Virus record (IMG/VR): IMGVR_UViG_3300028832_000096
Length of the DNA: 64,000 bases
Source: a virus
Taxonomy: Duplodnaviria > Caudoviricetes
Reading direction: 5' to 3' (one strand)
Below, piece by piece: positions 6,197-13,484 of this stretch. Under the pieces are notes generated by a model. That model was not told the DNA's origin. It saw nothing but the letters and a program-made list of their open reading frames with translations, and did not search any database. The position numbers and the translations under genes are program-made. Each line of letters opens with the position of its first letter. Within the stretch, counting starts at the first letter, position 1.

Positions 6197-7684
6197 TTAC
6201 AAATTAGAATTTGGGATAGTATACATATAATCCCAAGGCATTGCATATTCAATCTGTCGTGCTATCGCAAATACTCTATCATCTTTATATCTAGGAGCGA
6301 TTACTTGCATACCGATAGGCAGTTTTTCATTAGACATACCGATAGGAACTGACGCTGCTGGAAATCCAATCATATTCTCTAAATAAGTATAAGCAAAGCC
6401 AATGAGCGGGTCTATAGCAACTCCATTTATGTTATCAGGGCCTTTTGTATTGTTGTTTGTTCCATTTTTAGGATTCAAGCAACCTGCTATCGGTGAAATG
6501 ATAATATCATAATCCTCAAATATATTACAATGAGCATCTAAAATATCTGTTCTGATTTCATGGAACTTTCTATAATCCATCATTGTAGATGCAAAAGCAA
6601 TACTATCCCAGTAAATGAATTCTTCTGGAAGGTCATCTGCATGTTCTCCAATTAAGTCGAAACCGTTACGCTTTGCTAACGCGTTGTCGATAGATGAATC
6701 TACGCTAATTCCTCTTAACCAGGCCTCTTCCATTTCTCTAGGAGTGTAATGGAAATCAAAATGAACTTCCTCTACAATGTTCCCAAAATTTTTGAGCACC
6801 TCTATTGTTTTAACAAACTCTGCTTCAATTACAGGGTCAGGATGAGGGAAGATATCAAAATTATATGTGTAACCTATACGGTAGTGCTTATCACGGAGCA
6901 TCTTGTTTTTATCTAGTATATTATCAACCAAATGCTCAGGAGTGATTACACTAATCGGGTCTCTAGGGTCATGCTTTATCATTTCGGCAAGTACTGTTGC
7001 AGAATCGTCTACTGTTCTAGTTATCGGTCCACCACAACAATAGGGGTGTGTAGCTGTCCAAGCATCGGGTCTGCATACACTAGGAACAAGTCCCGCAGAA
7101 GGTTTATGGCCGAAGCAACCGCACCAAGCAGAAGGAATTCTAATAGAACCACCAGCATCTCCACCTTCAGCAATAGCCATCATTCCAGAACCTACAGCAG
7201 AAGCACTGCCACCAGAACTTCCACCAGAATTATATTCTGTGTTAAACGGAGTAGATGTAGGACCATACATTTTATTATCTGTGGTTCCTCTGAAACCAAA
7301 AGCAGGAGCATTTGTTTTACCTATTACTATTGCACCAAGATTCTCCATTGCTTTGCAGATTTCTGAATCATAAGCATCTACAGCTATAAGAGATTTAACT
7401 CCTCCATGTGAATTTGTCCAACCTTCTTTACTAGGTAAGAAATCTTTGAGTCCAACAGGAACTCCGGCTAAAGGACCTACATAGATTCCTTTTTCCAGTT
7501 TATCTTCAATCTTCTTTGCCGCTAATCTAGCTTCATTAAATTTAGTATATACAATCGCATTAACTTTAGGATTAATCCGATTAATCCTTGCTTCATATTG
7601 GTCAAGAATTTCTGTAGGAGTTATCTCCTTATTGTTGACCATATTTCCTAATTCTAATGCTGAGCAATAAAAAATATCCTTCAT
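6197..7684 (-). CDS. Amidase signature family enzyme
   Basis: GLKD, GGSSGGS and GGSIRIPS motifs (Lys-Ser-Ser triad); start reassigned to ATG 7684 with AAGGAG RBS. Confidence 0.9.
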   Translation of the reverse strand: MKDIFYCSALELGNMVNNKEITPTEILDQYEARINRINPKVNAIVYTKFNEARLAAKKIEDKLEKGIYVGPLAGVPVGLKDFLPSKEGWTNSHGGVKSLIAVDAYDSEICKAMENLGAIVIGKTNAPAFGFRGTTDNKMYGPTSTPFNTEYNSGGSSGGSASAVGSGMMAIAEGGDAGGSIRIPSAWCGCFGHKPSAGLVPSVCRPDAWTATHPYCCGGPITRTVDDSATVLAEMIKHDPRDPISVITPEHLVDNILDKNKMLRDKHYRIGYTYNFDIFPHPDPVIEAEFVKTIEVLKNFGNIVEEVHFDFHYTPREMEEAWLRGISVDSSIDNALAKRNGFDLIGEHADDLPEEFIYWDSIAFASTMMDYRKFHEIRTDILDAHCNIFEDYDIIISPIAGCLNPKNGTNNNTKGPDNINGVAIDPLIGFAYTYLENMIGFPAASVPIGMSNEKLPIGMQVIAPRYKDDRVFAIARQIEYAMPWDYMYTIPNSNL

Positions 7685-7737
7685 TATGTTCTCCTTAAAT
7701 GAAATATAAAAGAGTGGGCAGTATATGTCCACTCTTT

Positions 7738-7746
7738 ATAACGATT
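7738..7746 (-). promoter_or_regulatory. Putative early/middle promoter motif AATCGTTAT (first of 11 copies)
   Basis: Exact 9-mer at 7738, 11974, 12885, 33225, 41059, 41815, 42794, 45862, 50146, 51954, 57681, at gene boundaries in one orientation. Confidence 0.75.
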
Positions 7747-7762
7747 TTTATTTTAGTAAATG

Positions 7763-8224
7763 TTACAGCGTTCCTTTGTAAGCAAGATAGCATTCTGCAT
7801 CATATTCATCTAAATCATATGTATCTACATCTGGACCATATGCATCGTAGAGCTCCTTGCCGTAGCGAATCATTGCTTCTGGTGACCAATCTTCGTCGTC
7901 CCATTCGTCATCATAAAAGTAATTTCTTCCGATTCGGATTACGTCATCAGTTACATCGCATAACTCGTTGCCGACCACAAGACCTAAGAATTCATCATCA
8001 TTGAGTAATGAAATGATGTGATAAAGTTCACCATAACCTTCATCTGTAAATGAGCCTGGCTCGTCTGCATATCTTGTCTGATAGACACGCCATACCTGAT
8101 AATCCTCATATCCAGGAGGAAGTAACTGTGCAGTTAACTCTTCAGAATCATATGTTCCAAAACTAGAGGTAATATCTTTATAACACCTCTTTATAATTTT
8201 CTCCATTTTTTCTTGTCTGTCCAT
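7763..8224 (-). CDS. Acidic hypothetical protein
   Basis: Start moved to ATG 8224 (GAGG RBS, no overlap with folE); preceded by AACCTT motif. Confidence 0.65.
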   Translation of the reverse strand: MDRQEKMEKIIKRCYKDITSSFGTYDSEELTAQLLPPGYEDYQVWRVYQTRYADEPGSFTDEGYGELYHIISLLNDDEFLGLVVGNELCDVTDDVIRIGRNYFYDDEWDDEDWSPEAMIRYGKELYDAYGPDVDTYDLDEYDAECYLAYKGTL

Positions 8225-8267
8225 AAGTAATTCCTCTGATAATTTAGAATATCGTAATAAATTAAGG

Positions 8268-8894
8268 TTATCGAACAGATGATAAATGGAGCTCTTGTAC
8301 CTTGCCTTCAATCTCTTTACGTGCATCTGAGTCTTTGCGCAGCGCTGGTGATATGAAGGTTGCATCAGTTAATCCTTCGGACCTAGAACCTCTAGCACTT
8401 ACACAGCAATGATTCATTACAGAACGAACATAAACTCGGTTTGAACCTGTAGCTAACTGGATACATTTTGCAATATCTGCGTTAAGTTTTTCTTGAAGCT
8501 GAAATCTTTTAGCGCACATATCAACTATTCTAGGTATCTTGCTAAGTCCAATAACTCTATAACCTTCAGAATCATCTTTCCGATTCCAATATTCAGGAAT
8601 GTAAGCAACATAAACAGTTCCACTCATACTAGCCATATGGTGTTCGCAATGACTATAAACATTTTTTACTTCCTTAATTACAATTGAATCGTAACTTACA
8701 TTGAAATCTTTTCTAAACATTTTTGCGATTTCATCGTTAGTATAATCTTCGCCTTCAAGAAGTTCAGCCCAATACTTCGCTACTCGCTTAGGAGTTTCTT
8801 TGAGCCCTTCCCTTTCTACATCTTCACCCAAAGCAATAAGGAGATTTTTAACTGCCTCCTCTACCTTAGGCATATCAAGATTCTTATAACTCAT
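8268..8894 (-). CDS. folE: GTP cyclohydrolase I
   Basis: REGLKETPKRVAK, HCEHH, IGLSKIPR, LQE and CVSARG motifs; start at MSYKN. Confidence 0.92.
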   Translation of the reverse strand: MSYKNLDMPKVEEAVKNLLIALGEDVEREGLKETPKRVAKYWAELLEGEDYTNDEIAKMFRKDFNVSYDSIVIKEVKNVYSHCEHHMASMSGTVYVAYIPEYWNRKDDSEGYRVIGLSKIPRIVDMCAKRFQLQEKLNADIAKCIQLATGSNRVYVRSVMNHCCVSARGSRSEGLTDATFISPALRKDSDARKEIEGKVQELHLSSVR

Positions 8895-8895
8895 G

Positions 8896-9273
8896 TTATG
8901 CCTCCCAAGGATAAACAATCCATTTATTTTCTTTATATCGCATGAAGTAATCAGGAACTACGCAACTTGCTGTATTGTAATACATAGATGCAATCTTATA
9001 ACCTTTATTAGCCCAAGCTTTCGCAGTATCACCAGTGTCAATGATATCATCTACAACTAAACAGCCTTTCTGTGGAGCACCTAAGAAAGGCAAATTGTAC
9101 TTGTGAGATATAATAACTGCAAAGATTAATCCACCTCTAGGCGGACCATATACGCCTGTAAAGTTAGAACTAGAAATAAGAGGTTCTAGTAATGTGATAA
9201 AGGCATCGACATCATCCCAAGTTACTTTAACCTTTTCGACTGTCATATCACGCAAATCTCTTTCGTTTTCCAT
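8896..9273 (-). CDS. Type I phosphoribosyltransferase (xanthine/guanine PRTase-like)
   Basis: PRGG loop, PRPP-binding LVVDDIIDTGDT, C-terminal WIVYPWE. Confidence 0.85.
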   Translation of the reverse strand: MENERDLRDMTVEKVKVTWDDVDAFITLLEPLISSSNFTGVYGPPRGGLIFAVIISHKYNLPFLGAPQKGCLVVDDIIDTGDTAKAWANKGYKIASMYYNTASCVVPDYFMRYKENKWIVYPWEA

Positions 9274-9275
9274 GA

Positions 9276-10022
9276 TTAAACTCCTTGTTTATTACCCCAG
9301 ACTAATGTATGAATCTGAGGTAATATGTAAACATTTTCAAAATTGCTAGGGAATTGATTAATTCTATTTAACAATTCTTCATAATCAGATAAAACTCTAT
9401 CGCGAATAGATTCTTTAGTATCTACATCTGAATTACCTACGCTAAGATATAATCTAAGATTGATATTGTTATCTCTTTTATTTGTAAATTCATTTACGAA
9501 ATTTGCATAGTTTCTTGCAAATGTTATATCCTCTGCATTAAATACCGGAATCTTAATAGCAATAGTACGATTACTTTGATTATTGTTATTAATAAATTCT
9601 GTAATAGTATCATAAGTATCTAGCATACCGCTCGAAGGCGCTTTAGGACTAAATACTATTGTATCAATCATAGTTAACCAATCAGGAATTAAATCTCCTT
9701 GTGTTTCTATATCAACTAATATACCAAATGCCTTTAATTTGAATAATACATAAGTGAAATCATATAAACAGGGATTGCCTCCTGTAAGTACTATATGTTT
9801 ACAATTATCAGTAAGGCATTTATGAATAAGCAGCTGTGCAAGCGTTTCGGGTTCATATTGAATTACTTCACTTGCATTTCCATTCCAAGTATATTTACTA
9901 TCACACCAAGAACATTTAAAGCTACATCCCTTTACACGGACAAAGATGCATCTTGCACCTACATTAGGCCCCTCGCCTTGCAACGTAGGGCCAAATATCT
10001 CTACAATAGGAATTTTGCTCAT
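9276..10022 (-). CDS. queE: 7-carboxy-7-deazaguanine synthase (radical SAM)
   Basis: EIFGPTLQGEG, CxxxCxxCD (CSFKCSWCDS), TGGNP, LPQIH. Confidence 0.93.
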   Translation of the reverse strand: MSKIPIVEIFGPTLQGEGPNVGARCIFVRVKGCSFKCSWCDSKYTWNGNASEVIQYEPETLAQLLIHKCLTDNCKHIVLTGGNPCLYDFTYVLFKLKAFGILVDIETQGDLIPDWLTMIDTIVFSPKAPSSGMLDTYDTITEFINNNNQSNRTIAIKIPVFNAEDITFARNYANFVNEFTNKRDNNINLRLYLSVGNSDVDTKESIRDRVLSDYEELLNRINQFPSNFENVYILPQIHTLVWGNKQGV

Positions 10023-10387
10023 CAGTCCGGCTTCCTTTCATATGTAGCTATGTTTCCTTCGCTTTCCTGAACATCTACTCTACAACAATATCCTACATCG
10101 CAAAGTTCGTCTACTTTATCGCAAATCCACTTAGCAATATTTTCTGCAGTAGGGTTGATACCTGGAAGCAAATCATTAAGATATCCATGGTCTAAGAATC
10201 CATGAATTTCTTTCTTAACTTTTGCAAAGTCAACAATCATTCCATATTCTGTAAGCTTGTCAGCTTCGCAGTAAACTGTTATATACCAGTTATGACCATG
10301 AAGGCCTTGGCACTTTGATTCATAAGGCAGTGAAAGCTGATGACTGCCTGCAATTTCCATACGCTTGCTAATTCTCCATCTTTCCAT
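10022..10387 (-). CDS. queD: 6-carboxytetrahydropterin synthase
   Basis: CQGLHGHN, MIVDF, LDH, PTAENIA, ESE motifs. Confidence 0.93.
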   Translation of the reverse strand: MERWRISKRMEIAGSHQLSLPYESKCQGLHGHNWYITVYCEADKLTEYGMIVDFAKVKKEIHGFLDHGYLNDLLPGINPTAENIAKWICDKVDELCDVGYCCRVDVQESEGNIATYERKPD

Positions 10388-10390
10388 GGA

Positions 10391-11089
10391 TTAGTCCTCC
10401 TCATACTGAATAGGGTCTGTAGTATTGTTTGCTTTAAATGCTGCAATTCTATCTATGCAAGTTCCGCACTTTCCGCAGGCTTTATCTCCGCCTTCATAAC
10501 ACGACCAAGTTAATTCATAAGGAACATTCAAACTAAGCCCTGTTTTTACTACTTCTGATTTATTCATGTTAACCAGCGGAGCAACTACTCTTACTTTACC
10601 ATATGTTCCGATAACAATTGCAGTATTCATTGCTGAAGTAAATTCTTCACTACAATCGGCATAAGCTCTACCTGCGGCGTCATCTGCATGAGCGCCTAAA
10701 TAAATATCTACATCGTCATTAGGATAAATAGATTGAGCAAGAGCCGCTACAGCTGAAAGCATGAGGCCATTTCTAAAAGGAACATAAGTGCTAACTTTAC
10801 CTTCACCATTCTGTGCAATCTGGTCTGCATAACTCTGCTCAGGTATATCTTCAGTACTGTGAGCAAGTAATGAACAATTACTATACTGCAAAACATTTGA
10901 AAGGTCTAAAACATAATGATTTACTCCATAGTATTTTGCAATCTTATCTGCACATTCGAGTTCTTTAGAATGTCTTTGACCATAACTGACAGATACAGTG
11001 CTTACATTTTCTTTACCTAAACTCATAGCAAGGGCAACACAAGTAGTTGAATCTACTCCGCCGCTTGATAATACTAATGCTTTTTTCAT
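10391..11089 (-). CDS. queC: 7-cyano-7-deazaguanine synthase
   Basis: SGGVDS, YGQRH, TYVPFRN, YADC, TWSCY...CGKCGTC. Confidence 0.95.
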   Translation of the reverse strand: MKKALVLSSGGVDSTTCVALAMSLGKENVSTVSVSYGQRHSKELECADKIAKYYGVNHYVLDLSNVLQYSNCSLLAHSTEDIPEQSYADQIAQNGEGKVSTYVPFRNGLMLSAVAALAQSIYPNDDVDIYLGAHADDAAGRAYADCSEEFTSAMNTAIVIGTYGKVRVVAPLVNMNKSEVVKTGLSLNVPYELTWSCYEGGDKACGKCGTCIDRIAAFKANNTTDPIQYEED

Positions 11090-11404
11090 TTAATCCTCCT
11101 TTTCATATAATTCTGGAAACGCTAACATGATTAAATCTTCAATTCTATGATAAGTATCTGTCTGGCCATAGTATCCTGGTTTATATCTCTTATGAAGATG
11201 ATATACTGGAGACCCAGTTTTCTTACTATACCTACAAGGTCTAATTATTCTGGATTTATAATGTACTTCATGAATATCGCACTTGTGCGTTTTACCGTGA
11301 ATTCTGCTTCGAGTAACTACACGGCTAACACTTCTGACTCTGCCTATATTAGATACTTCATAAAGATTTTCATAATTAGGAATAGGACGCCAGACTTCTT
11401 TCAT
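11090..11404 (-). CDS. NUMOD4 domain protein (no HNH domain visible)
   Basis: EVWRPIPNYENLYEVSNIGRVRS NUMOD4 signature. Confidence 0.75.
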   Translation of the reverse strand: MKEVWRPIPNYENLYEVSNIGRVRSVSRVVTRSRIHGKTHKCDIHEVHYKSRIIRPCRYSKKTGSPVYHLHKRYKPGYYGQTDTYHRIEDLIMLAFPELYEKED

Positions 11405-11411
11405 ATTGACC

Positions 11412-11915
11412 TCACATATCAAATCTTATAGCACGATTACTTGCATCTCTGAGGGCGTCAAGCTGACGAGATTTTGCGTAATCTGCATAATCAAACTTAG
11501 GATTAGCCCAATTGACGAAAGGAAATATACTAATACCTCCTCTAGGTGAGAAAATACCTCTTACTTCGATGTACTTTGGGTCCATTAGTTTAATGAGGTC
11601 TTTCATTACGATATTCATACAGTCTTCGTGGAAATCACCATGGTTTCTAAAAGAGAAAAGATAGAGTTTAAGCGATTTACTTTCTACCATGTTTTCATTA
11701 GGAATATAGCTAATAATTACTTTAGCAAAATCAGGCTGGTGTGTCTTCGGACAAAGACTTGAAAATTCATAAGCATCAAAACTTACAACATAATCATTGT
11801 CCTGATGTTTGTTGATAAATGTTTCAAGTACTTCAGGGCAATAATCTGTAGGATACTTTGTATTCTGATTTCCGAGCAGTGATACATTACCGAGTTCTTC
11901 AGTATTTCTTGACAT
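11412..11915 (-). CDS. queF: NADPH-dependent preQ0 reductase (type I)
   Basis: [11 protein letters not shown] catalytic Cys/Asp, ESKSLKLY QueF motif, FHE, PRGGI. Confidence 0.95.
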
Positions 11916-11935
11916 ATGATTCTCCTTGTGAAAAA

Positions 11936-11970
11936 TTAAAAGGTGTAACCTATAAATATAGATTACACCT
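11936..11970 (-). terminator. Terminator upstream of queF (candidate riboswitch expression platform)
   Basis: Minus strand AGGTGTAATCT...AGGTTACACCT followed by TTT. Confidence 0.65.
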
Positions 11971-11991
11971 ACTATAACGATTATTCGTGTT

Positions 11992-12047
11992 GTGTAACCT
12001 GTTATTTTTGTTTAATGAGGGGCTGTCAAGGTAGTTACAAAACCCTC
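11992..12047 (-). ncRNA. Putative preQ1-I-like riboswitch aptamer no. 2 (transcriptional, upstream of queF operon)
   Basis: Stem GAGGG/CCCUC, loop UUUUGUAACUACCUUGACAGC, A-rich tail AUUAAACAAAAAUAAC, then AGGUUAC able to pair with loop GUAACU; loop resembles aptamer no. 1. Confidence 0.55.
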
Positions 12048-12055
12048 TAAAATAT

Positions 12056-12781
12056 TTAAGCAGCTTTATGTGCGTCGATATAAGCTTGACCTACTTTCTC
12101 CTTATCCCATCTACGAACAATTACAAGTCCAAGAGGCGAGAAAATAAGTTCTGCAATAAGCTCAAACAAACCGCCGAGAATAGCTGTTCCTACGCAAGTA
12201 AGAATAGGAAGCGATGTACCCCAATAGATAGGAGCAAAGATGCAATAAACACCTGCGATAAACAAGAAGTTATCAATGGCCTGACCTACAAATGTCGAGC
12301 CCCAACTTCTCATGAAGAAAGCAATACCACTATCTGGATTCTTCTTAAATAACTTGCCGATAGCTGCATTAAGCAAACTGTTGATAATTCCTGAAACAAC
12401 AAATGCTACTGTAGAACAAAGTACGATAAACCAAACACTACCAAAGATATAATTGAATTCGGTGTAAGGGTCTTGAGTAGGAATTGCAGCTACAATTGCG
12501 AGGAATACTACAGCAAAAAGATTGCCTACAGCAGAAAAGATGTTGAGCATGATTGAAGCTCTTGCACCAAATCTCTTTGTTACTGTGTCCATGCAAAGGA
12601 ACGGAAGCCAAGAAAGAATAAATCCACCAGTTACTGCAACATTAAAAGCATTAAAGATAATCTTACTAGCAGCCAAGTTCATAAGAACTGTACCAAGAAC
12701 AAATGCTACTGTTACAAGAGCGGGGATGTTATTCAACAGCAATTTATAGTCCGCTATCAAAGACTTTGTTTTTGAAACCAT
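12056..12781 (-). CDS. yhhQ: Queuosine precursor transporter (YhhQ/VUT family)
   Basis: Multiple TM helices; MNLAASK, D..T..FG...S and RS.GST.VGQ.IDN motifs; adjacent to que genes. Confidence 0.85.
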   Translation of the reverse strand: MVSKTKSLIADYKLLLNNIPALVTVAFVLGTVLMNLAASKIIFNAFNVAVTGGFILSWLPFLCMDTVTKRFGARASIMLNIFSAVGNLFAVVFLAIVAAIPTQDPYTEFNYIFGSVWFIVLCSTVAFVVSGIINSLLNAAIGKLFKKNPDSGIAFFMRSWGSTFVGQAIDNFLFIAGVYCIFAPIYWGTSLPILTCVGTAILGGLFELIAELIFSPLGLVIVRRWDKEKVGQAYIDAHKAA

Positions 12782-12790
12782 GGTTTGATT

Positions 12791-12855
12791 CCTCCTTAAA
12801 ATATAGTTTTTATTTGTAAAGCGGAGGATGTCGTAAGGAAGTACGAACTCCGCTG
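12791..12855 (-). ncRNA. preQ1-I riboswitch (translational, upstream of transporter)
   Basis: AGCGGAG-UUCGUACUUCCUUACGACAUC-CUCCGCU-UUACAAAUAAAAACUA...AAGGAGG; UUCG loop start, terminal C, A-rich tail; loop CUUCCUU is complementary to the SD. Confidence 0.75.
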
Positions 12856-12902
12856 ATTACCAAAAGGAATAGTATATCTATACTATAACGATTCAGGAAT
12901 TA

Positions 12903-13484
12903 TTAAACTTCTCTAATGAGCCAACAGGTACCATCATCGGAAGGACCAATCTGGAATTCAATACCATCAATTTTTACATTCCAAGAAGTCCAACTACCAC
13001 CCCTACCTGTTCCAAAATACTTACCACCGAGGTCAGCAAGCAAATCATCAATAAACGCTATCAAAGCATCACGGCTTCTATCATCAGGAGATACATGAAT
13101 TCCGTCATCTTGTGTATCATAATATAAATTAGTTGAATCAAGATAATTTTCAATCTTTGATGTAACAGCATCTGCGGTTTCAACTTCTTTAGTATAGTTA
13201 TCAGCCTGCTCTTTGAAGTAAACAAGATTGCTTTGAAGCCATTCAAGAATTAAATCAATTTTTTCGTCAAAATCAACGATGCCTTTTTTCTCAGCGAGGC
13301 CTTCCCAAACATGTTTAATATATTTAGGATTATATGATTGAATATCACAAGCATCAAGTTCTGCTTGATTTTCGCATCTAGCCACAGTTCTAATGTCCTT
13401 GCGGATAGCAGCTACTTGTGCAGGCATACCCTGCGCTTGAGTTCTTCTATATGATTGTCTAGCAGATTTGATATACTTTTTCAT
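12903..13484 (-). CDS. Hypothetical protein with MKKYIKSA leader (possible internal virion protein)
   Basis: AAGGAG RBS, AACCTT motif upstream. Confidence 0.75.
   Translation of the reverse strand: MKKYIKSARQSYRRTQAQGMPAQVAAIRKDIRTVARCENQAELDACDIQSYNPKYIKHVWEGLAEKKGIVDFDEKIDLILEWLQSNLVYFKEQADNYTKEVETADAVTSKIENYLDSTNLYYDTQDDGIHVSPDDRSRDALIAFIDDLLADLGGKYFGTGRGGSWTSWNVKIDGIEFQIGPSDDGTCWLIREV

Follow-up and report, generated by a model that had tools for sequence, protein, structure and literature searches.

A probable expanded class I preQ1 riboswitch variant preceding a YhhQ-family transporter gene in a rumen-type phage

The transporter leader and its surroundings

The 64-kb stretch of viral DNA analysed here (the window) has, in the intergenic region preceding a transporter gene, a hairpin followed by an A-rich tail. 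A first-pass annotation made from the sequence alone had read this hairpin as a class I preQ1 (preQ1-I) riboswitch that sequesters the Shine-Dalgarno (SD) sequence of the transporter gene. Metabolite riboswitches are seldom reported in phages (PMC9004378), and no description of preQ1-type switches in phage 7-deazaguanine clusters was found in the literature searched. The question raised by the locus is whether the hairpin is part of a preQ1-responsive element, and if so, of what kind.

The element extends from position 12854 to 12791 of the minus strand, to which all coordinates below refer, and is composed of a stem, a 21-nt loop, an A-rich tail and the SD. In the stem, P1, the 5′ strand AGCGGAG (12848-12854) forms 7 bp with the 3′ strand CUCCGCU (12820-12826), and the last G of the 5′ strand (12848) belongs to the invariant closing G-C pair. 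The whole loop, UUCGUACUUCCUUACGACAUC (UUCG...CAUC, 12847-12827), is made up of L1, UUCGUA (12842-12847); an anti-SD segment, CUUCCUUA (12834-12841), which represents the 5′ strand of a putative pseudoknot helix, P2; and L2, CGACAUC (12827-12833). The full tail reads UUAC-AAAUAAAAACUA-UAUUUU and is followed by the SD; L3 (12799-12819) consists of UUAC, the A-rich tract AAAUAAAAACUA (12815-12804) and part of the spacer (UAUUU), and 6 nt separate AAAAACUA from the SD. The sequence UAAGGAGG (12798-12791) forms both the SD, with AAGGAGG (12797-12791) as the SD proper, and the 3′ strand of P2, and 9 nt lie between the SD and the AUG at 12781-12779. Complementarity between CUUCCUUA and UAAGGAGG amounts to 8 bp, including one G-U pair, with a duplex energy of -9.9 kcal/mol. 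All parts named in the first-pass annotation, i.e., the 7-bp stem, the UUCG...CAUC loop, the A-rich tail and a loop segment able to pair with the SD, are present on this strand.

The order of features in the intergenic region is the stop codon of ORF 12903-13484, the motif AATCGTTAT (12885-12893), a 14-nt palindrome, the hairpin, the tail, the SD and the AUG. The motif is situated 30 nt 5′ of P1. It has 11 exact copies in the window, against a chance expectation of 0.74, and none of 100 shuffles reaches 11; all copies are on the minus (coding) strand and are intergenic, before an SD and ATG. The element does therefore lie just downstream of a recurrent phage motif, as had been stated, and in the relatives L001, L002, L051, L058, L069, L071 and L099 it is likewise preceded by an (A/T)TCGTTAT motif. 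We consider AATCGTTAT to be promoter-like. The palindrome, AGUAUAGAUAUACU (12871-12884), is perfect and is found between the promoter-like motif and the riboswitch candidate, and it has no conserved counterpart in relatives.

Being G+C-rich, 7 bp long and some 50 nt past a stop codon, the hairpin may also be a mere terminator or 3′-end stabiliser of the upstream gene (12903-13484), with the remaining features due to chance, and the fold z-score is only -2.3. However the hairpin is followed by UUUACAAAU (UUUACAAAUAAAAAC) and not by a U-run, whereas a true terminator is found in a second element described below (11970-11930). In addition, the promoter-like motif is placed between the stop codon and the hairpin, and the loop and tail are conserved with the downstream gene, whereas upstream genes vary among loci. 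A terminator function is thus highly improbable.

The gene downstream of the element encodes a YhhQ/Vut_1-family transporter of 241 aa (12056-12781; Pfam PF02592, E 7e-21). YhhQ is a predicted preQ0/preQ1 importer according to literature cited in PMC10622847, and the text cited there gives its preference as preQ0. Pfam and PHROG matches show that the order after the leader is yhhQ, queF (11412-11915), an HNH/NUMOD4 endonuclease gene (11090-11422), queC (10391-11089), queD (PTPS; 10022-10387), queE (radical SAM; 9276-10022), an ORF for a PRTase-like protein of 125 aa (8896-9273) and folE (8268-8918), followed by an amidase gene; the operon part after yhhQ covers 8268-11915. The que cluster region 6197-11422 also holds a 200-aa ORF without a family, besides the 511-aa amidase. 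Elsewhere in the window there are genes for tail proteins, an endolysin and a helicase, and every gene lies on one strand. The earlier placement of the element in a phage genome, before a transporter gene, is borne out by these genes and by the PF02592 match. The source is a large rumen-type phage with a preQ1-type 7-deazaguanine cluster, and its nearest relatives are found among IMG/VR contigs (38-200 kb) and metagenome contigs of rumen type.

A similar gene set, with the transporter gene beside the biosynthesis genes, is found in Streptococcus phage Dp-1 (queF-C-D-E, folE, queT and DpdA), and the window QueF is 65% identical to that of Dp-1. The transporter of Dp-1 is QueT, which has no match in the window by tblastn, and its leader is 50 nt long without an annotated riboswitch, whereas the window has YhhQ. 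A tblastn search of the 64-kb window with Dp-1 DpdA did not reveal a DpdA/TGT gene; for this reason a DNA-modification purpose of the cluster is presumed.

Comparative evidence for the stem, the core bases and the loop-SD helix

Related loci were gathered by transporter protein similarity alone, from IMG/VR, metagenomes and two Eubacterium genomes. A leader of the window type is present in approximately 33 of the 43 distinct YhhQ-homologue upstream regions that are long enough to judge. In the Eubacterium genomes the transporter is 39-40% identical to that of the window and has a shorter version of the window leader; a captured host operon is suggested as the possible origin.

Twenty-seven leaders were aligned with MAFFT without regard to structure (alignment A3). 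The inner six pairs of P1 are paired in 162 of 162 cells, with compensatory changes in five of the six pairs, and it should be noted that these stem statistics come from elements chosen by a parser that demands a perfect stem, the sister subtype described below being the independent test. Slid controls show 32-59% pairing as compared with 100% at P1, and RNAalifold applied to A3 returns a single helix, identical to P1. Examples of the compensatory changes are CCGCAG/CUGCGG, CCGCUG/CAGCGG, CCGGAG/CUCCGG, UCACGG/CCGUGA and GAGAAG/CUUCUC.

Several single-stranded positions are invariant in the same alignment. These are the UU after the P1 5′ strand, the UC before the 3′ strand, which is the end of L2 (27/27), and four tail adenines, with AAAAC in all 27 sequences; the UU and UC are U7, U8, U26 and C27 of the element. 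The closing G-C pair of P1 is also found in 27 of 27, and the C of L1 in 24 of 27. By comparison with the Carnobacterium antarcticum (Can), Bacillus subtilis (Bsu) and Thermoanaerobacter tengcongensis (Tte) structures (PMC11625349, PMC8752633), C12827 is a candidate for the "specificity" base that would pair with the ligand. The lengths between these conserved bases are more variable: the loop, 21 nt in the window element, is 15-29 nt in relatives, and the spacer from AAAAAC(U/C)A to the SD ranges from 0 to ~15 nt among members, with 6 nt in the window element. The element is more than a chance arrangement, as the leader, with compensatory stem changes, is kept in dozens of related loci. The window's own subtype is rare in IMG/VR, since a strict pattern for it gave one true match and 18 stem-less chance matches (n = 19).

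Two further observations concern leaders in this collection. A metagenome contig has an extra copy of the element (L050:595-651, 24.6 bits with the covariance model R1 described below) about 550 nt 5′ of its yhhQ leader. The bacterial YhhQ homologues L036-L039 have a distinct conserved leader, UCCUG-UCGUAAAACAAAAC-CAGGA-CUAC followed by a terminator, which has no Rfam match.

The pairing between loop and SD also co-varies. In 38 elements, the mean duplex energy of a loop with its own SD flank is -6.04 kcal/mol, compared with -5.38 ± 0.17 kcal/mol for permuted combinations, and none of 5000 permutations is as good. Compensatory A-U to G-C swaps in P2 are seen among close relatives, e.g., CCUUA/UAAGG in the window element, L064 and L058 as opposed to CCUUG/CAAGG in L059. 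Other P2 variants are CUUUGA/UCAAAG (L048), UUCCUUUGA/UCAAAGGAA (L066), UCCAA/UUGGA (L082, L086, L088), UCCUA/UAGGA (L020) and CUGUU/AACAG (L050). The earlier proposal that the enlarged loop pairs with the transporter SD is thus sustained by the 8-bp duplex and by the permutation test, and the data support an H-type pseudoknot in which P2 would bury the SD.

Two other pairings were considered. A P2 at the canonical position, formed by the nt immediately after UUC with the CUA or ACC of the tail (GUA/UAU, GGU/ACC or GU/AC), was not adopted because its register differs between subgroups and several members have no such pairing. A hairpin inside the loop (CGUA/UACG in the window element) can be drawn in many members at positions that do not align, and is possibly, at most, a feature of the apo state.

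A second element before queF and the sister subtype

Between the yhhQ stop codon and queF there is a second element (11930-12047), which belongs to a sister subtype. Its order is GAGGG-UUUUGUAACUACCUUGACAGC (the loop)-CCCUC-AUUAAACAAAAAUAAC, with a tail that ends in AAAAAUAAC, and its P1 pairs GAGGG (12047-12043) with CCCUC (12021-12017). Further downstream are an antiterminator strand, CAGGUUACAC (12001-11992), a terminator hairpin (11970-11941, -15.8 kcal/mol) and a U-run (11940-11930, UUUUAAUUUUU after the hairpin), and then the queF SD. When the RNA is folded only as far as the 5′ arm of the hairpin, P1 and a 9-bp antiterminator are formed, the latter from AGGUUACAC and GGUGUAAUCU. The loop is able to pair with AGGU/GUUACA of the antiterminator strand, and a ligand-stabilised P2 would by this pairing free the terminator. 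The same layout is repeated in L141:4751, L145:3880 and L164:928.

A copy of AATCGTTAT lies inside the second element (11982-11974), between the antiterminator strand and the terminator, and this placement is conserved in L141:4751-4870, L145:3880-4000 and L164:928-1050. Transcripts starting at this copy might be short of part of the terminator and thereby escape the feedback.

The sister subtype was searched for in IMG/VR with a pattern that fixes only the single-stranded bases and the closing pair and is otherwise blind to P1. There are 47 distinct matches, and 44 of them have a covarying P1 of 5-9 bp, with 3-6 pair types per position; the strict pattern mentioned above, with 18 stem-less matches out of 19, serves as a comparison. 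Among the 43 scored for the ORF that follows, 22 precede a YhhQ-like gene and eight precede queF, and several of the remaining 13 ORFs look like mis-picked start codons. The C before the P1 3′ strand in these matches is not independent evidence, since it is part of the search pattern. In the sister tail, U stands where the window's subtype has C, and the position 5′ of the specificity C is occupied by C, G, U or A.

In the sister subtype, members with a 3′ partner other than an SD have correspondingly changed loops, as in AACCUU/AAGGUU in transcriptional copies and CUCAU/AUGAG in L165. The P2 permutation test is not significant in this subtype, where it is uninformative because anti-SD and SD are nearly invariant. 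R1, a covariance model built from the window's subtype, picks up sister-subtype members that were outside its seed, with E values of 3e-4 to 8e-3; thus the two subtypes are related.

In the complete 159-kb phage G004 three copies are present, two of them in tandem before the que operon; in the tandem (L105:1376-1564) the first aptamer leads to a terminator/antiterminator and the second to an SD. At L121:6726, L130:3132, L145:1616, L155:6126 and L176:2609, the SD that would be under control of the switch opens only an ORF of 8-18 codons. A hairpin after the short ORF is found in at least L121, L130 and L176, with a U-run in L130 and L176, and this layout may represent a leader peptide or translation-coupled attenuation.

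Relation to known preQ1 riboswitches and the proposed control

A search of the window with the Rfam preQ1 model, RF00522, gave no match at the gathering score of 39 bits, nor at E≤10 with cmscan of 401 nt or 77 nt around the element, and in this respect the first-pass assignment is not upheld. The models of preQ1-II (RF01054) and preQ1-III (RF02680) also do not match the window element, even at E≤10. No riboswitch family was detected by Rfam scans of the whole window, of the 401 and 77 nt, or of 71 nt of the second element, and scans of 19 + 11 related loci reveal only tRNAs. RF00522 likewise gives no match at the homologous elements of phage relatives, and its score with the compact phage element L020 is 10.3 bits. 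The compact leaders of bacterial orthologous transporters score only 18-21 bits, which is below the threshold but among the best matches in their genomes. RF00522 with its 39-bit cut-off is thus too narrow for this lineage, and the miss is not decisive.

The best Rfam score at the element is that of the uncharacterised GP20-a motif (RF02991), with 13.3 bits against a cut-off of 47.2 bits, over 12788-12862, from the stem through the UUUAYAAAUAAAA tail to the SD. This identity was dismissed as low-complexity similarity of tail and SD.

R1 does not match the compact bacterial preQ1-I-like leaders, and in 151 genomes from the order to which Eubacterium uniforme belongs it has only three matches. 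The class I link is therefore drawn from the core bases held in common, from the architecture and from the gene context. Because the RF00522 test fails and R1 misses the compact bacterial forms, the element is filed as a variant of class I; plain membership in RF00522 was dropped, and the element is better named an expanded variant.

The lack of a covariance-model match to any riboswitch family, together with the weak GP20-a similarity (~13 bits) and the low complexity of A-rich tails and anti-SD loops in an AT-rich phage, would be in keeping with a pseudoknot or hairpin that occludes the SD without a ligand, giving fixed low translation, an RNA thermometer or a phage-protein operator, with a convergent likeness to preQ1-I. 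But the invariant single-stranded bases fall exactly at the ligand-contact positions of class I, and the link to yhhQ and queF is tight across many unrelated phage contigs. Moreover the transcriptional version has the same aptamer on a different platform, a common trait of metabolite riboswitches that a simple SD mask would hardly account for. We regard a ligand-independent mask as quite improbable.

The closest similarity is to type I preQ1-I riboswitches, whose marks are UU after P1, UC before the P1 3′ strand, and a conserved C and UA in the tail, and which bind two stacked preQ1 ligands cooperatively (PMC8752633, PMC11625349). With the Can type I riboswitch (RF00522; PDB 8fb3), the element shares the closing G-C of P1, the UU, the UC and an A-rich L3 followed by C-U-A, and the UUC of its L1 corresponds to U6, U7 and C8 of type I (PMC8752633). 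In this respect the first-pass match to class I aptamers can be retained, as the element has the class I, type I pocket signature of UU after P1, UC before the 3′ strand, the closing G-C and an A-rich tail with C. The predicted translational OFF logic on a queuosine-precursor gene is common to both as well.

Differences from type I are chiefly those of size. P1 has 7 bp (5 in type I), the loop 21 nt (~12 in type I) and L3 ~22 nt (8 in type I), and the element thereby exceeds the compact class I dimensions of ~34 nt, with a loop of ~10-14 nt and an L3 of 6-8 nt. The SD is located 6 nt past CUA, whereas it abuts CUA in type I, and its pairing partner is a segment inserted in the loop, not the nt right after UUC. 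Compared with the solved aptamers, the 5′ strand of P2 is displaced by the conserved GUA-containing L1, and a spacer lies between the A-tract and P2. The sequence marks of type I are present, but a P2 at the canonical position (GUA/UAU, GGU/ACC) is inconsistent across members. Since the loop and L3 are far larger, the pocket geometry of the solved structures may not transfer to the element.

Type III riboswitches, from E. coli and other gamma-proteobacterial yhhQ leaders (PDB 8fza, PMC10622847), resemble the element in the regulated gene, the UU after P1 and a variable-length linker from P1 to a conserved poly-A. In type III a loop CCU pairs by Watson-Crick pairing with the AGG of the SD and the whole SD is buried; in the element a pyrimidine-rich loop segment would likewise bury the whole SD. 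However the loop of type III is the smallest in the class and AC stands before its P1 3′ strand, whereas the element has the largest loop and UC. In type III and the sister subtype P2 comes immediately after the poly-A, which is not so in the window element, and type III occurs in Pseudomonadota, the element in phages of gut or rumen Firmicutes-like hosts.

Type II is represented by Tte and by Bsu queC, and compact leaders of the bacterial orthologues (L041, L044, L045 and L047) are Tte-like, with AC and CAAAACAAGG. These leaders stand at the equivalent place before the orthologous bacterial transporter genes. The second window element has a terminator/antiterminator choice, as in Bsu. The window elements differ from type II in that UC or GC takes the place of AC and that L1/L2 and L3 are of much greater size.

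An alternative that keeps the fold and the SD sequestering is that the effector is preQ0 or another phage 7-deazaguanine derivative, or that two stacked ligands are bound, in which case a distinct pocket would make the element a new class. The UU, UC and tail C form the two-ligand signature of type I, the sister tail U and the variable base before the specificity C hint at differing pockets, the preference of YhhQ in the text cited above (PMC10622847) is for preQ0, and none of the Rfam models for the three preQ1 classes detects the element. Yet with queF in the operon preQ1 is produced, the core bases coincide with those reading preQ1 in the solved structures, and as a rule class I aptamers accept preQ0 as well as preQ1 (PMC10622847). 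A different effector or stoichiometry is accordingly judged improbable.

The best explanation, and in our view the likely one, is a translational OFF switch on the importer gene that senses preQ1 or preQ0 and is an expanded offshoot of class I, with a transcriptional OFF switch for the biosynthesis genes as its counterpart. To our knowledge all preQ1 switches are OFF switches; the OFF direction is favoured for this reason and because both platforms are wired accordingly.

In the mechanism envisaged, transcription probably starts just 3′ of AATCGTTAT, and P1 (7 bp) would form in the nascent leader. As preQ1, or the preQ0 from which it is made, rises in concentration in the infected cell, it would be bound at the top of P1, where it may be held by the closing G-C, the UU and UC, and the adenines and C of the A-rich tail docked in the P1 groove. 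Docking of the tail would stabilise P2 between CUUCCUUA and UAAGGAGG, and with the SD of yhhQ buried, translation of the importer would drop. In the second element the P2 partner overlaps the antiterminator, and ligand binding would let the terminator form before queF-queC-queD-queE-folE. Together the two elements would exert feedback on the 7-deazaguanine precursor pool, presumably for modification of phage DNA.

A bolder interpretation, to which we give only limited credence although it is less doubtful than the alternatives above, is that the leaders make up a riboswitch class of their own, centred on phages. In such a class the segment inserted in the loop would add a further helix, formed with the SD or the antiterminator, next to a pocket like that of type I. 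Two ligands, or a 7-deazaguanine intermediate specific to the phage, may be read by this pocket, and a promoter would be nested in the second switch. If this is true, the nested promoter would allow the phage to set the timing of DNA hypermodification without dependence on the feedback.

On the preferred interpretation of an expanded class I variant, the phage appears to control by feedback both the import and the synthesis of a DNA-modification precursor, and to do so with two versions of one aptamer, translational and transcriptional. Dozens of family members occur in uncultured phages and are undetected by Rfam 15, and a dedicated model would improve the annotation of phage DNA-modification operons. 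As natural "expanded" class I aptamers, its members may serve to study which insertions in loops and linkers are tolerated and whether the two-ligand mode survives them.
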